In this document: positions 3,423 to 27,201 of the stretch, piece by piece
Layout of the letters: the number at the start of each line of letters is the position of its first letter
Numbering within the stretch: the first letter of the stretch is position 1
Virus record (IMG/VR): IMGVR_UViG_3300044712_000336
Coordinates: 1-64,000 of that record
Reading direction: 5' to 3' (one strand)
Length of the DNA stretch: 64,000 nucleotides
From: a virus
Translations under genes and position numbers: made by a program
The notes under the pieces: generated by a model
The model's database searches: none
What the model was told of the DNA's origin: nothing
Seen by the model: only the letters and a program-made list of their open reading frames with translations

Positions 3423-5849
3423 TTAACTCTGTTTTTTCTTAGTTTTAGCCAATTCATTTTGTCTATCCAACTCATTTTGTTTTGCTTCAAAATCACGTTG
3501 TTTATCTGCCTCTTGTTGGTCAAATTTACGTTGTGCTTCTTTATCAGCATTAACAAGTTGTTGTTTTTCTAATTCTATATTATCTTCTATTCCATTATTA
3601 TTAGCATCTGTATAGAATTGTTTAAATGCTTCAGATTTGGCTTTATCTTGTAAATCCATTTGTTTAAGTTGCATATCATATTCAGCTTTAACTTTAATTT
3701 CTTCAAGTTTGAATTGATGTTCCATTTGTTTCATTTGTACTTGAACTCGTAATGCTTGCTGTTGTATTTGTACTTTCTGTTGTTCTATCTGTATACTTTC
3801 TTGACGTTTCCTTTCTTCAGCACTTTTTAATCCTTCTATCATAGAAGTAGGACTATGTGATAACATTAACATTGCAACATCGCTCAGATTAACAGTACCA
3901 CCTTGTACAGCTCTACTGATAATATCGGTTTTTAATAATGATTCAAGTTCAGCAACTTTAGTACTATTAGTTATCTGTACATCATAATCAGCTTCATTAA
4001 ATGTAGCACCATCAAACTCTAATAATGCTATTTGTGCATCATCTAATATTGCTTGTCTTAACTCTTTTTTATCCTTTAAACAATATTTAGCTACTTCTAA
4101 GAATCCCCGTAAAAACTCTATTTGAAATTCATCATGTAATCTAAATAACCATTCAGTTTGAGTTGCACTATATGATACAGCTTGTTGAGCATTACCTACT
4201 TGTTCATTAGGTGATATATTTCCTTGACGTTGTGGTGATATACCTGATAATCTACTAATCATATTTTCAAGATAATTTAGATATGTTAATATCTGTTCTA
4301 TCTCTTGTGCAGCAGACATATCAATATATGAATTACTACCTTGCATATTACCCGCTATATGACCTCTTCCGTCTTCTTGGAAAGAATTACGTAATGCTAC
4401 TCTATGTTTTCTTATGAAATTAAACCATCTTCTTACATCCCATTTTTCACCATCATCCATCATTCCATTAGGTATTGATGCTAAATCAATATTAGCTACT
4501 CTACCATAATTAGTAAGCCATAGATGTTTTAGTTTTTTAGCATATACAACATATTCATAAGCAAATGATTTAACTGTATCAATAATGGAAAATGCTTTAC
4601 CGTTATTTATATTACTAACTATTCCACGATACATAGGTTTACATTCTGCTGGATTAGTCATACTTCTAAATTGTACTGGATTAGGTTTAATATCAGTATA
4701 TATATTAGCACCTATCTTAACGCCAGACCACCATTCAGGTATCCATATCCATTCAATACTTTCACCTTTAGATTCATCTGCTTTATAAAACTCATGTACA
4801 TATTGCTGTTGTTCATTACCAAACTCATCAATATATTTTAATATACCAATTTTACGTTGGGACATCCATTGTACACGCAATACTAATATATTACCATTCT
4901 TATCAAACCATCCGAATCCAAATTGAGGAACGTCTAAATCATCAATAGGTAATAATACATTAGGTAAATCTTCATAATTAGCAATCATAGTACCTCTCGA
5001 TCTAACAATATAATTACTATATTCTTCCAACTCTTTAATTTGAGTAAAGGTTAGATTCCTAAACTCTCTTAATATAGTACCCATATTATAATATTCCCAA
5101 TGTAATATCATAGTGGAATCTTCTATTCTATTACTTTGACCATTACCTTTATATAATACTTGCATAGGATTACATTTTAACCAATAAGGCTCACCATTAG
5201 CAATTCCTAACATTGCTATTTCTTCAGCACCAATAACTAAATCTTTATAACAATTACTACTAAAGTTTTTCCATCTCAATCTTTCCATATAATGTTGAAG
5301 AACATTATTAGCTAATTTCTCATGGACAGTTTGTACACCATATTGTTTCCATTTAATTAACTCTTCGATTTCTTTTTGTAACTCTTCATCATTGATTTGT
5401 TCTGCTTGCATTTTCTGTATAAGAAATTGAGATATTCTTTCCCGTATAATTCTTTCCTTCATGGAAACAGCTTCAGCATTTGTTACATAAGCACGTGGAT
5501 CAAAACTACGTTTTAATTGTTCACCTACTAATGTATCTAATACATTCTTTAATACAGCTAATCCATCAGTTTCATCAAATAAATCCTTAACATCATTATC
5601 ATAATCATCATCATCTAATAACATTGGATTTAGTTGCCTTGCTATTTTCTTTGGATCATACTTCCCTAATACTATATTATAATTCTCTATCTTATCTTGT
5701 TTAGATTTTCTTATTAAATCATGCGAGAATAATACACGATTAATAGTACCATCTATACTATCCTTCTGCCATTTCAAACCACGTTTAGTGTTATCACTAA
5801 CTAACTGTGATGGAAATTCAGCATCTACCCTGAATGGATAATTGTCCAT
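3423..5849 (-). CDS. Portal protein
   Basis: 808 aa next to TerL; WIWIPEWWSGVKIG and SGISPQRQG segments typical of crAss-like portals; Q-rich coiled-coil C-terminus. Confidence 0.88.
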   Translation of the reverse strand: MDNYPFRVDAEFPSQLVSDNTKRGLKWQKDSIDGTINRVLFSHDLIRKSKQDKIENYNIVLGKYDPKKIARQLNPMLLDDDDYDNDVKDLFDETDGLAVLKNVLDTLVGEQLKRSFDPRAYVTNAEAVSMKERIIRERISQFLIQKMQAEQINDEELQKEIEELIKWKQYGVQTVHEKLANNVLQHYMERLRWKNFSSNCYKDLVIGAEEIAMLGIANGEPYWLKCNPMQVLYKGNGQSNRIEDSTMILHWEYYNMGTILREFRNLTFTQIKELEEYSNYIVRSRGTMIANYEDLPNVLLPIDDLDVPQFGFGWFDKNGNILVLRVQWMSQRKIGILKYIDEFGNEQQQYVHEFYKADESKGESIEWIWIPEWWSGVKIGANIYTDIKPNPVQFRSMTNPAECKPMYRGIVSNINNGKAFSIIDTVKSFAYEYVVYAKKLKHLWLTNYGRVANIDLASIPNGMMDDGEKWDVRRWFNFIRKHRVALRNSFQEDGRGHIAGNMQGSNSYIDMSAAQEIEQILTYLNYLENMISRLSGISPQRQGNISPNEQVGNAQQAVSYSATQTEWLFRLHDEFQIEFLRGFLEVAKYCLKDKKELRQAILDDAQIALLEFDGATFNEADYDVQITNSTKVAELESLLKTDIISRAVQGGTVNLSDVAMLMLSHSPTSMIEGLKSAEERKRQESIQIEQQKVQIQQQALRVQVQMKQMEHQFKLEEIKVKAEYDMQLKQMDLQDKAKSEAFKQFYTDANNNGIEDNIELEKQQLVNADKEAQRKFDQQEADKQRDFEAKQNELDRQNELAKTKKKQS

Positions 5850-17662: not shown

Positions 17663-17934
17663 TTTGTGTTAAGTTTAGATAGTGATAATGGGTAGTAACA
17701 TCCACCTATCACTATCTACTCTTAATATTTTATCTTATTATATTCACATACAACTAAGGCGAACTATAATTTTATATCCTTCGGAAATTCTGAGATTCTG
17801 ATAATTAGAATTGACATTAACTATAAATATCATTAAACATTTTTGTTTAGTATTATTTATCTTTCGGGAATAGTTATGGTTATCCTATGGATCAGTAATT
17901 TATCAAATTTCGGATATACAGGTCTTTTATTCTT

Positions 17935-18007
17935 TTATTATTTAATGCAGCTATATCCAAAAAGATATAAGAGTTACAAGCCTCTATAAATGCAGAGTAA
18001 GTAATAA
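17935..18007 (+). ncRNA. Twister ribozyme, type P1
   Basis: P1 TTATTAT/GTAATAA; TT^AA cleavage loop; P2 TGCA/TGCA; P3 TATATC/GATATA; P4 AGAG/CTCT; L4 TTACAAGC; pseudoknots GC/GC and TTAC/GTAA. Confidence 0.9.
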
Positions 18008-18309
18008 TAAGCACCTACTATTCCATACAGCATGATGGAGTATTATAAGCCTTTTCCCAGATTACAAGAGTAATTACTTGTAATGTAAGAATAGATTATC
18101 TAAATAAGAGAGTAATTAACTCAAATAGGATAATTGATGGATAATACGTGATTGTTCTACACATAGTAGTTGTTTTTAAAACAACTAAATGAAGTTGTAC
18201 CATTGGTTTGTATATTAAACTAAGCAGAAAATCTTAGTATAAATTAAAGTATCAAAGAACCTGAACTACAACAGTAAATGTAGTGTATTGTACTTACCCG
18301 AAGTATAAT

Positions 18310-18816
18310 ATGAGTAAAAATAGTGGTTTAAGGACTGCAAGGGATGATATTATGGCTAATATGTCAGCACAAATAGTACGTGAAATAGTTGCTTCTTCAC
18401 TTAAAATAAAAGCAACTAATGTTATTCTTAGCAGTGTATTACCTGAAAACTTCTGCGTTGAAGCAGTAAGTACATCAGGTTGTATGTATTCAAACTCTAA
18501 CGATTGTAGAGTTTGGGCATTTAATCCACAACAAGGATTGGTATTATTGCAGCAATCTGTTATTACAGAAAATGCTGCAAGTAATGCTAATGGTACTTGG
18601 GAAAACTCTTATGGATATACTTTTGAAATGCTTGCAGAACAAGCACCAGAAGCTATCTTCTTTGTAGTTATGGAAAGTTCAGATTACTCAGATTGTAATG
18701 GTAGAGATGAACATTCTATAAGTTATACATTATACAAAGCTCCAGACTTTAAAAGTCATTGGGCTAAAATCCAACAAGAAGCCATTGCTCGTTGGGAGCA
18801 ATGGTTGAACTCATAA
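18310..18816 (+). CDS. Hypothetical protein (start uncertain)
   Basis: Long ORF inside an otherwise non-coding region, followed by a hairpin at 18818-18853. Confidence 0.6.
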   Translation: MSKNSGLRTARDDIMANMSAQIVREIVASSLKIKATNVILSSVLPENFCVEAVSTSGCMYSNSNDCRVWAFNPQQGLVLLQQSVITENAASNANGTWENSYGYTFEMLAEQAPEAIFFVVMESSDYSDCNGRDEHSISYTLYKAPDFKSHWAKIQQEAIARWEQWLNS

Positions 18817-19011
18817 TCTAACAGGCATTTCTTAGGAATGTAAGACCTGTTAGTTTATAGTTAATATCATATATAATATCTTATAACAAAGTTGTATCTA
18901 ATCTTTGTTATAACTATCAGTAGATGTACTGATGTAGGCTATTTGGGTCAATAGCTGAAATGAATAGATAGTGGTGCATGACTGCTCAAACCAATTAAAC
19001 TTAAAAATAAA

Positions 19012-19092
19012 ATGATAATAGCATTTGTACTGTGTGCAGTAGGATTTGGTATAATAGTTATATCTAAATCTTCAAAAGTAAGAAATTACTAA
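19012..19092 (+). CDS. Small single-TM peptide (26 aa)
   Basis: MIIAFVLCAVGFGIIVISKSSKVRNY; strong A-rich leader like that of bona fide genes here. Confidence 0.45.
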   Translation: MIIAFVLCAVGFGIIVISKSSKVRNY

Positions 19093-19306
19093 TGTCTTAG
19101 GTATATACACATTTATTGGATAAATACCAATCATGTGTATGTCTTAAGGATAAACTAAAAGATGTTTAATTGAAAACAATATAAGTATTACAATATAAGA
19201 GGAAGAAGTCTATTGTTACATGCCGTGATAGGGCAAAAATACTATAATACTATCAAACCAAACTCAATAGAGCAACTCACAAATCTTTGAGTAATACTAA
19301 ACTTAT

Positions 19307-19810
19307 AGTAACAAGTAATAGAGTAATAAAGCAGAGGCAAAATGAATAAGTCCTAAAATGGTTGCCCGGAATAGTTGCTCAACTCGTGAGCCGACCACTG
19401 AGACTACAATTACTTGTTACTTACTTTTAATGATTGATACTACTTCTAATATGTACAATCTGGTATGGATGTAGTGCTTTAATTAGCCATCATAATCAAG
19501 TCAGATTATTAATCATTATTTAATACGATGATTGATATACAAACCCCCACTAAGTCCGTTTGGCGGTTTTAATACCCATGAATTGTCATGGAGTATATCA
19601 ATCGTTACATATAAAACAGTTAATAAAAGTGTCGGCATATATCAAGATCATACTTGTACCTAACTTGATATAGTATTATTAGGTGTTAACTGTTTTTAAC
19701 TTGAATTAATTACATCCTTAAAGGTTAAGAGCTTTACTTAATAAAAACTACATTAAATATTAGTAGTAATAAAAAAGTTCTGTATAGACTAAGAAATACA
19801 GTAAGGATGT
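19307..19810 (+). ncRNA. Array of five adjacent structured RNA modules, each closed by a 9-14 bp stem
   Basis: Terminal stems at 19307-19421, 19428-19518, 19527-19606, 19613-19696 and 19712-19810; spacers 6-15 nt; G-U pairs favour the plus strand. Confidence 0.65.
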
Positions 19811-19824
19811 TTAAGATATAAAAT

Positions 19825-19892
19825 GGACTATATCATAAGATTGATCACTTATGATATTGGAGAATATTGGTTCGAATCCAATTATAGTCCCA
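19825..19892 (+). ncRNA. Truncated tRNA-like element (acceptor stem + T arm + one hairpin)
   Basis: GGACTATA/TATAGTCC 8 bp stem; ATTGG-TTCGAAT-CCAAT T arm; TCATAAG/CTTATGA hairpin; no D arm. Confidence 0.65.
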
Positions 19893-19929
19893 ATAATAAA
19901 TCTAAAAGTAATAATTAAAACTTAAAGAA

Positions 19930-20550
19930 ATGAAAAAGAAATGTAAAGTAGTGAGGCTTCCTACAGAAAAAGCAACGTGGTCTAATTGTATTTGGTTAAG
20001 TAGAATTAATAATCAATTAAGATTAGATAAATCTTATAATATGTTACCCCAACATCTTTATATTATTTCAGACGATGAAGTTAAAGAAGGTGATTGGTTT
20101 ATCAATGAACAAATTGATGGAGATAAAGTTATTTGGCAACATAATGGAAATATTATACCTAATAGCAACCCTAAAAAGATTATCGCTACAACTGATAATA
20201 GTATTGGTATAAAACCATTTACCGTATTTCCTCAACCATCACCACAATTCATTCAAAAGTATATTGATGAATGGAATAAAGGTAATAAGATTGAATGGGT
20301 TAATTTGGAATATGAAGCTATTCCTAATGAATTTGATAATCCTTTTACTAATCCTAAAGGATTGGATAATTTTGAAGATGCTAAATGGGAACTCAAAGTT
20401 GACAAAAACAATTACATAACCCTTACTAAGATTAAGGATAACTGGAATAGAGAAGAAGTAATTCAATTACTTCAATCTTATAGAGAGTTTGTATGGGGAA
20501 ATGGTGCAACTCTATTTGATTGTACTAAATGGATTGAAGAAAATTTATAA
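19930..20550 (+). CDS. Hypothetical protein (KIIATT family, paralog of 21234-21674)
   Basis: Shares KIIATT...PQ motif with 21234-21674. Confidence 0.7.
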   Translation: MKKKCKVVRLPTEKATWSNCIWLSRINNQLRLDKSYNMLPQHLYIISDDEVKEGDWFINEQIDGDKVIWQHNGNIIPNSNPKKIIATTDNSIGIKPFTVFPQPSPQFIQKYIDEWNKGNKIEWVNLEYEAIPNEFDNPFTNPKGLDNFEDAKWELKVDKNNYITLTKIKDNWNREEVIQLLQSYREFVWGNGATLFDCTKWIEENL

Positions 20551-20554
20551 AATA

Positions 20555-20779
20555 TAAAGAATAACTAATGAGGTTATGGGTATTCTCTAAAGCGTGTACA
20601 AGAGAATCAAGGCTATTGGGGATAAACTGAACAAGGCATGATATGTCAGTAATCCGGTAATTAGTTATTCTTTACAATATAACAACTTAATGAAGAACAC
20701 ACTTACCTTAAATAAGTAAGAGAAGTTAGTGCAAGATACTTTAAGTATAAGCATGATAGTGAAATGTAATTAAGTTGTT
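20555..20779 (+). ncRNA. Two further stem-closed RNA modules
   Basis: 15 bp perfect stem closing 20555-20674 and 11 bp perfect stem closing 20681-20779. Confidence 0.6.
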
Positions 20780-20987
20780 TATTTATACGATATAGGACAG
20801 TATATATAATATACAATATTAAATTATACACAATATATCAAAGTATAGTTAATTTAATATAGGACAATTTATTTTGAATGATTATTTTAAGACATTTAGG
20901 TTGTGAAATCGAAGCGGATATGTAATACATTCAATAGAATGTTCCATTATTGGTTATATCGTATGTCAAATTTAAAAACTAATTGAA

Positions 20988-21221
20988 ATGCAAATTCTAA
21001 AAAATAAACAAAGAAACTCATTTATTATCATAGATAATTATATGGTAGTATTACACGCAGAATGTCATAGAGATGAAGGATTTATTGAATATTACCATAA
21101 AGATAGTGTTCATAATTGTCTTGAGGATATTAATGACTATGAAGAATGTAATAATACATTTGGAATAAGTCAAGTAATAGATACTATTATTACATTATTA
21201 ATTATTACTAATAAGATTTAA
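20988..21221 (+). CDS. Hypothetical protein
   Basis: ORF with A-rich leader. Confidence 0.55.
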   Translation: MQILKNKQRNSFIIIDNYMVVLHAECHRDEGFIEYYHKDSVHNCLEDINDYEECNNTFGISQVIDTIITLLIITNKI

Positions 21222-21233
21222 AAATTAAAAACA

Positions 21234-21674
21234 ATGCAAAAACTAATTAAAATATCAGACTATTACTATGTAGTAGATAATAAAGCTGAAATAGTACCAG
21301 AGATTACATGGTGTATTAATAAAAATGAAGATACATTATATATACCTAATTGTGGTACAAGCTCTACTGCTGAGTATTGGAATAAAATAATAGCAACAAC
21401 TAATCCTTCATTACCATTACCACAAATCACTAATGCAAGTGATGATATGGTAGGTAAAGAAGTTGAAGTTGAGTTTAAACCCCTAACATTAATAGATAGT
21501 TATATTTCTGAAATTGCTATTCTAAAACCTATTTCAAAAGGTTTAAGATTACCAGATGATGATATATTTGGAGTAGAAACTTCAATTAATGGAACATTAG
21601 AAGAAGTTGATAAAGAGTATAGTGAAGATGAAGTATTAGCGTTATGGAAACTTGTGATAACAAATCTTGTGTAA
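21234..21674 (+). CDS. Hypothetical protein (KIIATT family)
   Basis: KIIATTNPSLPLPQ. Confidence 0.65.
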   Translation: MQKLIKISDYYYVVDNKAEIVPEITWCINKNEDTLYIPNCGTSSTAEYWNKIIATTNPSLPLPQITNASDDMVGKEVEVEFKPLTLIDSYISEIAILKPISKGLRLPDDDIFGVETSINGTLEEVDKEYSEDEVLALWKLVITNLV

Positions 21675-21726
21675 CATGTACACTACGAGGTATATGTTTA
21701 GTTCGTAAACATTAAAACTAAATAAT

Positions 21727-21858
21727 ATGATAGCACCATCATTAACAGGAATAGTAATAATTACTATAATAGTAATAATTACTAAGAAGATAAGAAAAGT
21801 AAGTAAAAGTATTACAGGTGTAACAAGCATTTGTAAAATGTTGGATAACAAAAACTAA
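21727..21858 (+). CDS. Small single-TM peptide (43 aa)
   Basis: MIAPSLTGIVIITIIVIITKKIRK..., hydrophobic stretch then basic tail. Confidence 0.45.
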   Translation: MIAPSLTGIVIITIIVIITKKIRKVSKSITGVTSICKMLDNKN

Positions 21859-21872
21859 ACATAATAAATAGT

Positions 21873-21944
21873 TGGGTATGTGATGAGTAATTGGATAACC
21901 TTAATACGAAAGTATTGATATTGGTTCGAGGCTAAACCTATTCA
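21873..21944 (+). ncRNA. Degenerate tRNA-like element lacking an anticodon arm
   Basis: D-loop-like AGTAATTGGATAAC, GAAA-capped hairpin, TTGG-TTCGAGG-CTAA T arm, weak acceptor pairing. Confidence 0.35.
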
Positions 21945-22369
21945 CTAACAGTCATAATATTGAAAGATTTATGAGCTATTTATTATTATAAGATAAATTA
22001 TTCTATAATCCAATGAAGGAAATTGTAGAAATACAAGAAGGATACTCAAAAGGGATGCAGATAACCAAAGTCTTAGAAAGGTCTGTATAGAGTAATTTAA
22101 TATCATTCCATCATGGAAGAGATATATAAAACTAACTTGAAATAAACTAAAGACAAAGTGTTCTAAAGTTTAAACAATCTAAGTAAAGTTAGTGGTGGCA
22201 GCATATATTATAAAGAAATAAGTGAAATAATCATTAGATTTTTCATAGAGAACTTATCATTTTTATAATACTATGCCTTATTACTAGTAATAGTAATATA
22301 GTAGTTGTTATTATAACAACATTGTGCAGCGAGTTGATGACTTCGCAATATTAACTAATATCTGAACTC

Positions 22370-22528
22370 ATGGAAATATCATTTGCAATTCTGTTCATAT
22401 TGTTATGTGGACAGATATACTTCTATAAAGGAAGTAAAAGAGATAAACTTATTATTGGTGGATGTATAATAGGATTGATTATAATAACAATATTAAAGTC
22501 AATCTTAACATTCCATTATGTAATATAA
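22370..22528 (+). CDS. Small two-TM peptide (52 aa)
   Basis: MEISFAILFILLCG...KGSKRDK...IIGGCIIGLIIITIL. Confidence 0.5.
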   Translation: MEISFAILFILLCGQIYFYKGSKRDKLIIGGCIIGLIIITILKSILTFHYVI

Positions 22529-23019
22529 TATAAAGACTACCTGTAGGAACATTATAAATTAGTTTAACATCGTTTTTACACTTACAGGTAGAATCTTTTA
22601 ATATCATTATTGTAGGAATATGTTATTAAGTAATAAGTATTCCTATATTGGAAAAGTTATATATCAATGCTGGAATATAAGATAAATAATAATATCTGAT
22701 TATCAAGTAAAAGCATTTTTGCCAGTTATTATTAATTATAAAGTGTTGATAAACACTCCGTTTTGTAAAAACGGTGTCTTTATAATAAATAAATGATTTC
22801 TTAATATGCAAATTCTATGTATAATTATTTTTGTTATATATTTATACTCGATTTAAGACACTCAATTTTAATCTGGATAACTAATACTAATCCTTAAAAA
22901 TAATGTCTAAAATCAAACCAGACGATATAAAAATGGGTATTCTAATGTCCAGAAATTATCCATAAATTATCCATAAATGAAGGTTCAATCTTAACCTTCA
23001 CATTTTCAACATTTTAAAC

Positions 23020-23091
23020 TCGAAGCCTAATATTAATAGTTAATATGATGGTCTGCAATCCTAAGCCAATTGCACTGATGATGATAGCTTA
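23020..23091 (+). ncRNA. Type II hammerhead ribozyme (variant core)
   Basis: CGAAGCC...GGTC^ stem III; stem I TGCAAT/ATTGCA; CTGATGA core; loop I TAAGC pairs with 3' GCTTA (pseudoknot). Confidence 0.78.
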
Positions 23092-23119
23092 AAGTTAATA
23101 ACAATTAAAACATAATAAA

Positions 23120-23434
23120 ATGAATATAACTAATGTAAAAAGTGAATTATTAGAATTTCTAAAAGGTTTACCAAAAGTGAAATGTGCTACTATTTCCTAT
23201 AACATTGGTAATGGTATAAACCCAAAAGAAATTCTTTTAAAAGTAGGATATTCTGAATCTGAATATTCTGAATTTTTAAAGAATTTAGATTTTACTTATA
23301 ATGCAAGTCTTACTGGTGATTTATCCGGAACAATTTGGTTTGTAGATAATACCTGGTGTGAAAGAGAAGAATGTGATTATTCAGAGTGGTGGGAACATAA
23401 ATATTGCCCAGAAATACCAAAAGAGTTACAATAA
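23120..23434 (+). CDS. Hypothetical protein
   Basis: GTIWFVDNTWCER..WWEH..PEIP conserved-looking C-terminus. Confidence 0.7.
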   Translation: MNITNVKSELLEFLKGLPKVKCATISYNIGNGINPKEILLKVGYSESEYSEFLKNLDFTYNASLTGDLSGTIWFVDNTWCEREECDYSEWWEHKYCPEIPKELQ

Positions 23435-26108: not shown

Positions 26109-26461
26109 ACGATTGTTTTCTAGGAATAACACTTGTCGTGAGATAACTGTTATTTTGTTATTTATAAATTTAATTTTAAATAAAATGAATAATATACAAA
26201 AGGTAATTGACAGTACAAATGGTAAGTTCACAACTGCTAAATGTGAACATATCTTTACAGAAGATAAACCAGAATCAGATATTATTAATAATGGATCATC
26301 AGTATCAATTGTTGTTGATAAGTTTATTGATGATGATTCTGGTGAAGATACTTGGGAAGTATTAAAATTTAAAAATGAAGATTTAGCATAAAGAAATTAG
26401 GAGATTTAGCTCAGTTGGTTAGAGCATTTACAATTTTTTATAAATAATAATTATTATTTTA

Positions 26462-26533: not shown

Positions 26534-27016
26534 ATGAAAATTGAATTACAATTACCTTTTAGTAATGACTATAAAGTTGGTTATATTGTTACAAATAAAG
26601 AAAATAGAAAAATGATTATACTTGTTGATAATTCTAATAGGAAAACATCTACCGCTTATGCAAGATATTTATTATCAGTTAAATTAGGTAGATATTTAGA
26701 AAGTAATGAACAAGCTGATCATATAGATGGAAATAAATGTAATGATTTTATAGATAATTTACAAGTATTAACTGCTATTGAAAACACTAGAAAATATAGA
26801 GTACAATCAAATACTTCTAGGAAAATGATAGAGTTAATATGTCCTATTTGTGGAGTTGTTTTCATAAAAGAACATAATTTATCACATTTAGTAAAAAATA
26901 GTAACTTTACAGTATGTTCAAAAGAATGTCTATATAAAATGTCTTCTTTAAAAAAATCTAAAGAAGAATTAATAGACATAGGTAATAAACAAGTAATTCG
27001 TATATTTAGAAAATAA
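26534..27016 (+). mobile_element. HNH homing endonuclease with C-terminal zinc finger
   Basis: DHIDGNKCNDFIDNLQVLT..EN; CPIC...CSKEC. Confidence 0.88.
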
Positions 27017-27201
27017 AGTCGTAGGTTCGATTCCTACATTCCCCACTAAACAATTATTAACAATTAAAAACAAATTAAAATGATAGAAATAACATGTATT
27101 GGAAATATAACTCATAATGAGTTAGTATATTGTTGGGGTAAATTATTATCATTAGATATGATGTATCCATGTGCTATAGGAACACTTAATAATATTGAAA
27201 T

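Follow-up and report, generated by a model that had tools for sequence, protein, structure and literature searches.

The subject here is a gene-poor tract, positions 17935-23091, in a virus genome, i.e., in IMG/VR record IMGVR_UViG_3300044712_000336. The first 64 kb of that record (positions 1 to 64,000) were analysed and are described as 'the window'. The full record is 104,710 bp long and carries direct terminal repeats, and its large terminase is ~36% identical to crAss-like phage terminases. The virus is a deeply divergent crAss-like phage of 104.7 kb. The tract begins with a twister ribozyme and ends with a hammerhead-like element, both found on the plus strand, and following the twister is a small gene, starting at 18310, that is directly preceded by a conserved leader RNA. 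I use here the term 'cutter' for these two elements, and for others at which a transcript might be severed, with all such cleavage being predicted.

Within the window GC content is 22-33%, and genes are directed leftward up to ~16.6 kb and rightward from ~16.9 kb. Open reading frames (ORFs) of at least 90 amino acids cover nearly the whole of the window except for 17663-23119, where only three occur. A sequence-only reading of this DNA had described the tract as the window's only large coding-poor one, which ORF tiling confirms, though the tract is not gene-free: The coding share of 17935-23091 is ~41%, and the interval between the two cutters contains six or more genes that are real or plausible. 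An alternative genetic code was considered as a cause of this gene poverty and rejected, all large window genes being open under translation table 11.

The twister and the hammerhead-like element

The twister is of type P1 and is located at 17939-18003 (+), where it matches the full length (1-68) of Rfam model RF03160 with a score of 54.9 bits (E 1.4e-10, or E 5.9e-13 on the whole genome). That score is under the model's gathering value of 67.2 bits. Eleven other viral twisters scored alike, i.e., from 45.8 to 61.7 bits, so that 54.9 bits is typical and the threshold is strict for what is an AT-rich viral subgroup. All of the helices form, these being P1 (17939-42/18000-03), P2 (17946-49/17991-94), P3, which is optional in this class (17952-57/17964-69), and P4 (17970-72/17983-85), and the conserved nucleotides are present (UAA, GC.GC, CAAGCC, UAAA, and GC.GAG). 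Pseudoknot T1 pairs G17950-C17951 with G17980-C17981 (GC/GC). Pseudoknot T2 pairs U17975-A-C17977 with G17997-U-A17999, that is, as UAC/GUA versus a consensus of CCC/GGG, so that the two strands have changed in a compensatory manner. The earlier description of a complete twister, with its predicted cut between U17943 and A17944 (17943|17944), is borne out by the Rfam match along with P1-P4, T1, and T2. This is, as judged from its sequence, a real twister ribozyme with an intact core, and one for which self-cleavage is predicted.

A search by twister-core pattern recovered more than 113 viral contigs, and this subtype thus is common in phages. Considering 119 viral twisters possessing the same core, the median distance to the next same-strand ORF is 33 nt and from the previous ORF 40 nt, with 76% found within 150 nt of the next ORF versus 32% for random positions. 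Separately, among sigma-70-like promoter matches in the tract the best is at 17743-17770 (+), i.e., TTCACA-16-TATAAT (11/12), ~170 nt upstream of the twister. Were that promoter used, then a newly begun transcript would have its 5' end trimmed by the twister, which would not be splitting a longer one. Sigma-70-like sites are not enriched in the tract, nor is the Bacteroidota-type promoter pattern enriched in the window.

At the other end of the tract, at 23017-23094 (+), is a type II hammerhead-like element with a notional cut after C23053. Core sequences are present, that is, CUGAUGA at 23075-81, GAA at 23023-25, and C23053 of a GUC site. Stem I is of 6 bp, stem III, which is long and AU-rich, is of 3+7 bp, and stem II is open and of 2 bp, with stems I and III loop-closed and with what would be a third stem II pair instead a C-U mismatch. 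An extra U follows A9, and loop I forms a 5-bp pseudoknot with the 3' tail, i.e., UAAGC (23062-66) with GCUUA (23087-91). At position 15.1, however, is a G (G23026), which stands opposite U23052 and therefore gives rise to a G-U with U16.1 rather than to A15.1-U16.1, versus an A in 19/19 genuine phage examples. A two-bp stem II is common in nature (PMC3088659). The A15.1-U16.1 pair by contrast is the hammerhead's most conserved, mutants at 15.1 or 16.1 are at least 10-fold less active, and candidates with a change at 15.1 were discarded by Perreault et al. unless activity had been demonstrated (PMC3088659).

The site matches no Rfam family in either a 6-kb scan or a 171-nt scan (E<=10), nor is it found genome-wide by the type II model (RF02276). 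It was instead recognized using a descriptor, made as loose as the candidate, that requires GAA, stem III, U-H, stem I as a hairpin, CUGANGA, and a stem II of 2 bp or more, and that allows one additional base following CUGANGA. This descriptor was composed after the candidate had been seen, though on independent phage DNA it proved to be specific. It has one match in the window, the candidate site, and it matches in 9/300 dinucleotide shuffles, or in 4/300 when the 5-bp pseudoknot between loop I and the 3' tail is demanded as well. Applied to 1.5 Mb of other phage DNA the descriptor recovered 21 sites, 19 of which are of a single architecture, GCC-GAA-A...U-C|stem I-CUGAUGA-u-GGC-a-pseudoknot strand, and in each of four contigs compared it yielded the same number of sites as did Rfam's Hammerhead_II (37-50 bits). 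Given the architecture shared by those 19 sites, neither the additional U behind A9 nor the short stem II nor the pseudoknot is an oddity of this copy, all three being usual in phage type II hammerheads, which agrees with Perreault et al. (PMC3088659).

A covariance model was built as well, based on 14 independent phage type II hammerheads, i.e., with the window sequence excluded, and was run with filters off against the whole 64-kb window. Positions 23017-23094 are the sole significant match, at 27.1 bits and with an E-value, which for a self-built model is rough, of 1.4e-5, versus 9.6 bits for the next best. Based on this sequence comparison, the element very probably is a relative of phage type II hammerheads. 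With G15.1 replacing the near-invariant A15.1, activity nevertheless is doubtful, the chance of useful activity being about one in three. The element ends 25 nt ahead of ORF 23120, and 10 of the 14 phage type II hammerheads similarly lie within 28 nt of the start codon of the next ORF. Of the earlier proposal of a type II hammerhead cutting after 23053, then, the position, strand, and layout stand and the class is very probable (by match to the self-built model), whereas Rfam recognition and an unchanged core do not stand. An Rfam check had been suggested for both ribozymes, and matches, below gathering, were obtained with the twister only.

The 18310 gene, its leader, and the cutters of relatives

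The gene found at 18310-18816 (+) encodes a 168-amino-acid member of an uncharacterised phage protein family for which there are 38 homologues, the closest of these (P0002-P0005) displaying 66-82% identity. It belongs to no Pfam or PHROG family. AlphaFold predicts a beta-sandwich fold with a predicted local distance difference test (pLDDT) score of 86.7, with residues 1-15 disordered. Structure searches returned generic beta-sandwich matches only (Foldseek best E 2e-3; VIA best Z 5.4), and ESM Atlas provided no usable match.

Immediately upstream, at 18220-18309 (+), is the gene's conserved 5' leader RNA. This consists of a small hairpin (18220-18237), an H-type pseudoknot in which S1 pairs 18261-63 with 18272-74 and the loop at 18265-70 pairs with 18279-84, and then a second hairpin, H2 (18287-18309), which ends at the AUG. 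As a consensus, there is a hairpin of 3-5 bp with an 8-nt loop, A-N6-A, the six central bases of which pair with sequence just beyond an A-rich linker. After the pseudoknot comes a GU dinucleotide and then a hairpin ending at a conserved AU(G/A)AGUAAAA.

Homologues of the 18310 gene were considered at ten loci, nine of them unique. The leader is present at 10/10 of these, and the leader descriptor matches nothing else in the ~1.1 Mb of DNA searched. Taking the nine unique sequences together, pairing is seen in 97% of pair cells, 9/11 pairs display double compensatory changes, and the same paired fraction was reached in 0/2000 column shuffles. The leader thus is supported by covariation, and it matches no Rfam family, RAGATH entries included. 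The leader RNA is undescribed and represents a new part of the finding. A leader pattern scan of IMG/VR returned 46 loci, which were set aside, 45 as chance matches and one as a duplicate of L117. The leader's 'AUG' is AUA in two loci, and in one locus it opens a 12-codon ORF. Together with the disorder of residues 1-15, this suggests that the real start may be the methionine at 18352.

What is found upstream of the leader varies by locus. In the window it is the twister-P1 just described, and a twister-P1 was identified as well, by Rfam, in L125. In L117/L118 it is instead a pistol ribozyme (Rfam, 63.7 bits), and in L121 a type III hammerhead (32.6 bits, which is under its gathering score). 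In L124 and L126 it is a tRNA-like structure possessing an acceptor stem and T arm, as identified by eye and by folding, with no Rfam score. In L119, L120, and L122/L123 nothing was recognised. Among these loci only the 18310 gene and its leader are held in common, with no other window gene shared. The expectation that related phages would keep ribozymes at both borders was checked and is not what is seen, as relatives share the gene and its leader only, and with different cutters.

Four kinds of cutter thus swap ahead of one conserved leader, and it is the cut itself, rather than any one ribozyme class, that looks to be selected. RNase Z leaves a 5'-phosphate, while ribozymes leave a 5'-OH. 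As cutters therefore leave differing ends, the common factor would be the severing of what follows from the upstream RNA.

Some of these loci and other contigs display additional features. An ~85-nt element is identical in the otherwise diverged L122 (~935-1020) and L123 (~535-620), where it is found upstream of the leader at the relatives' cutter position, and it is followed by a covarying hairpin. This 85-nt element matches nothing in Rfam and is a candidate for being a new cutter or a RAGATH-like motif. In L121 (JACCDR010465656.1; 413-898 and 2687-2764) the frame of the 18310 homologue is interrupted when read with table 11, and close by ARAGORN predicts a tRNA whose anticodon is of 4 bases, which could reflect a frameshift, recoding, or an assembly error. 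At this locus the type III hammerhead found before the homologue is joined by a twister ~900 nt after it. Other phage contigs (L112, L078, L089, and L011) possess two to four type II hammerheads plus two twisters on one strand, mostly ~0.3-1.6 kb apart. There the hammerheads are upstream of the twisters, which is the reverse of the window order, and twister-hammerhead pairing thus lacks a fixed polarity. In two of these contigs RAGATH-28 motifs are found on the same strand as the twisters and type II hammerheads, i.e., L011 3365-3449 (-), 61.7 bits, and L089 2624-2708 (-), 38.9 bits.

Remaining contents of the tract

Beyond the 18310 gene is ~1 kb of non-coding, stem-closed structured modules (18817-19825, +), with a possible 26-amino-acid hydrophobic ORF at ~19014-19094. 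Folding z-scores versus shuffles are -3.0 for 18817-19306 and -5.4 for 19300-19900, the minimum free energy fold of the latter consisting of back-to-back stem-closed modules. For the structured intergenic RNA at 20551-20987 (+) the z-score is -2.5, as it is also for the spacer between two small hydrophobic ORFs (21859-22369), and a fifth tract spacer is at -3.6. Two coding controls gave -1.6 and -0.5. The notion of the tract as carrying a structured-RNA cargo thus survives insofar as its spacers fold well, but this cargo is, at ~41% coding, not purely RNA.

Following the first of these spacers, at 19826-19890 (+), is a tRNA-like element. It has an acceptor stem and a perfect T arm, but a single hairpin replaces both the D and the anticodon arms. 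It scores 26.3 bits against Rfam's tRNA model (RF00005; gathering 29), with E 0.03 or, genome-wide, 1.3e-4. ARAGORN calls no tRNA in the window, its relaxed and mitochondrial modes returning noise only. The element is tRNA-like only, i.e., by score and by ARAGORN it is not a member of the tRNA family, though it may be a candidate substrate for RNase P/Z. It stands 40 nt upstream of ORF 19930. Two tRNA-like elements had been proposed for the tract, of which this one is supported and the second is not. Outside of the tract, sub-threshold tRNA-model matches at 26400-26456 and 26980-27045 (+) flank a 160-amino-acid ORF (26534-27016), a layout that agrees with an earlier suggestion of a tRNA split by an insert bearing an HNH gene.

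ORF 19930 (19930-20550, +) is a homologue of g004 of the crAss-like Cellulophaga phage phi14:2 (phrog_15656), with 32% identity over 99% of the query. After it come two orphan ORFs of no known family, one of 77 amino acids (20988-21221, +) and one of 146 (21234-21674, +), and then, from the ORF list, small hydrophobic ORFs of 43 (21727-21858, +) and 52 (22370-22528, +) amino acids. A terminator-like hairpin is found at 22758-22774, by consensus scan only and with no strand assigned. Just beyond the hammerhead-like element is ORF 23120 (23120-23434, +), a small gene of phrog_3972 with 47% identity to T5-like phage proteins. Its homologue in T5-like phage Spc35 starts 30 nt after a tRNA-Lys, inside of a tRNA gene block. 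An AT-rich motif (TAAnAATTAAAAC...AAATGA) is common to 19908-19934 and 23098-23124, i.e., to the sequences directly before the starts of ORFs 19930 and 23120, and resembles also the region before phi14:2 g003 (29 nt, 86% identity). It probably is a translation start context that lacks a Shine-Dalgarno sequence.

The tract as such has no match, by blastn, among 50,697 phage records, nor were close relatives of it found by way of the 545-amino-acid neighbour, the ORF 23120 protein, the tRNA-like 21-mer, or an 18310-family search of genome contigs. At gathering level, the whole window has no Rfam matches. Overall the tract is best described, with reasonable though not full confidence, as the accessory, gene-poor start of a rightward, early-type transcription unit, that is, as a string of small, self-contained gene cassettes along with structured non-coding RNA.

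Probable transcript punctuation, its alternatives, and known systems

The elements just described, found as they are just upstream of individual genes, probably serve to punctuate a long transcript on a gene-by-gene basis. The twister would cut itself during synthesis of that transcript, ahead of the leader and 18310 gene, the tRNA-like element that precedes the g004 homologue may be a site of cutting by host RNase P/Z, and the G15.1 hammerhead variant, if still active, may cut ahead of ORF 23120. Each downstream message would then be severed from upstream RNA, its 5' end being folded and bearing a 5'-OH. This severing could uncouple the folding, stability, and translation of a message from its upstream context. 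Both cleavage in vivo and its serving for insulation or stabilization are what I infer from the placement of these elements along with the conservation of a leader behind interchangeable cutters. Layout is as reported by Perreault et al., i.e., two self-cleaving motifs on the plus strand, each ahead of an ORF, with one of the two cores intact. Prophage hammerheads, that is, flank single genes or short gene blocks and cut polycistronic RNA both in vitro and in vivo (PMC3088659), and associations of twister, hammerhead, and pistol ribozymes are seen both with phage genes and among these ribozymes themselves (PMC4604425, PMC6765202). Knowledge of gene-by-gene ribozyme punctuation in phages thus goes back to 2011, and such punctuation is not new here.

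Certain points weigh against punctuation as a description of this locus. The G15.1 substitution probably weakens or kills the hammerhead-like element. The twister is 257 nt upstream of the leader pseudoknot, versus cutters found 0-30 nt away in relatives, and its link to the 18310 gene is therefore looser here. Eleven viral homologue loci of ORF 23120 have neither ribozyme nor tRNA upstream. The purpose that such cleavage would serve also is hypothetical for any phage. Going beyond punctuation, it is conceivable, if doubtful, that the 18310 gene and its leader form a portable, self-insulating cassette, with the leader a new regulatory RNA, either riboswitch-like or serving as an operator to which the gene's own protein binds, that needs a freshly cut 5' end from whatever cutter, and that the gene-poor tract yields abundant, stable, phi14:2-like RNAs acting in host takeover.

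From a different perspective, the twister and hammerhead were taken by the sequence-only reading to act as a pair, excising an RNA of ~5.1 kb (17944-23053) that is then RtcB-circularised, protected, or diced. Both elements indeed are on the plus strand, one at each border of the window's sole large gene-poor tract, both ribozyme classes leave ends that are RtcB-joinable, i.e., 5'-OH and 2',3'-cyclic phosphate (PMC8782182 for end chemistry), and RtcB is present in a Bacteroides control genome. In the phage itself, however, neither RtcB nor an Rnl2-type RNA ligase is encoded, and a query with T4 Rnl1 is uninformative, its control having matched nowhere. Between the cutters, furthermore, are not only genes but also the tRNA-like element, possible promoters, and the terminator-like hairpin. 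The bracketing arrangement is kept in no relative, the unit being neither repeated nor conserved, the order of the two ribozymes is reversed in other contigs, and the gene that directly follows each cutter accounts better for that cutter's presence. That reading also made its RNA dependent on an active hammerhead, and G15.1 thus counts against it. A single self-excised ~5.1-kb RNA consequently is unsupported and very improbable, and 'ribozyme-bracketed 5-kb RNA' is an over-read of the locus. What can be retained is that the tract is plausibly not mere spacer DNA, given its folding along with the early RNAs of phi14:2, even though a cassette for an excised RNA is not supported.

Retaining the spacers but not their joint excision, one might instead view the long structured spacers as the product, that is, as stable, abundant non-coding RNAs as in phi14:2, with cutters setting their ends and genes as passengers. 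Spacer z-scores of -2.5 to -5.4, versus -0.5 and -1.6 for coding controls, are in its favour, as is the identity of ORF 19930 as a g004 homologue, since the g004-g005 and g005-g006 intergenic regions of phi14:2 are early, stable, and transcribed above most genes (10.1101/2020.03.07.982082). The window's spacers, though, have no sequence or Rfam similarity to the phi14:2 left end or to any other locus, without relatives they can have no covariation support, and AT-rich phage spacers can fold well without function, leaving this view unlikely. Less likely still is that the ribozymes are selfish or decaying passengers of mobile gene cassettes, with no present function and with the hammerhead-like element already dead. 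The latter's G15.1, weak 2-bp stem II, and absence of an Rfam score would fit with such decay, as would a twister that is unusually distant from the next gene, and the function of such ribozymes in general is unknown (PMC6765202). The twister core nevertheless is intact, with compensatory pseudoknot changes, and the replacement of the cutter by other classes at the same place in relatives points to selection on cutting.

Gene-by-gene punctuation, as preferred here, finds its closest likeness in the prophage clusters of Perreault et al. (2011; PMC3088659). There too the ribozymes share a strand, with each directly preceding a small phage gene whose function is unknown, and the type II hammerheads possess a short stem II along with the pseudoknot between loop I and the 3' tail. 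The window differs in that its two elements are of different classes and are 5.1 kb apart, with an unusually gene-poor, structured tract between, in that its phage is crAss-like, and in that its hammerhead is core-substituted. Since 2011 the role that self-cleaving ribozymes play in phages has stood as an open question, to which this locus adds a clean twister example. Weinberg et al. (2015) drew on ribozyme-gene association in discovering the pistol, hatchet, and twister-sister classes (PMC4604425, PMC6765202). The associations so described (PMC4604425, PMC6765202, PMC11061315) are similar to those of the window insofar as twister, pistol, and hammerhead are neighbours of one another and of particular phage genes, and insofar as conserved structured RNAs of unknown function, i.e., RAGATH motifs, are found alongside ribozymes. 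By contrast, the 18310 leader is in no Rfam family, and tRNA-like elements as well fill the cutter position.

The early long non-coding RNAs (lncRNAs) of phi14:2 (Drobysheva et al., 10.1101/2020.03.07.982082) resemble the tract in being found beside a g004 homologue, at the start of a rightward early unit, and in a gene-poor region. Differing are an absence of sequence similarity and a transfer-messenger RNA (tmRNA) there but none in the window. The positional match to these abundant early lncRNAs is a new part of the finding, the tract corresponding in position, that is, to highly expressed early non-coding RNAs of unknown function. As an observation on phi14:2 itself (L127, NC_021806.1), that tmRNA is unannotated and located at 4031-4500 (+), with an ARAGORN-predicted tag of GSSVQKLAMVA* and an Rfam score of 46 bits versus a gathering value of 47 (E 4e-16). 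It falls within the region between g005 and g006, for which Drobysheva et al. reported an early lncRNA that is both very abundant and stable and whose function is unknown.

The tRNA punctuation of T5-like phages, with small ORFs found among tRNAs, is alike in that a processing signal directly before each small gene frees the downstream RNA. The window employs, by contrast, self-cleaving RNAs along with a degenerate tRNA mimic rather than real tRNAs, with insulation in its case proposed. Engineered ribozyme insulators of the RiboJ type represent a further parallel. A single gene family with a conserved leader standing behind four kinds of cutter in different phages provides a compact system for asking why cutting is kept.

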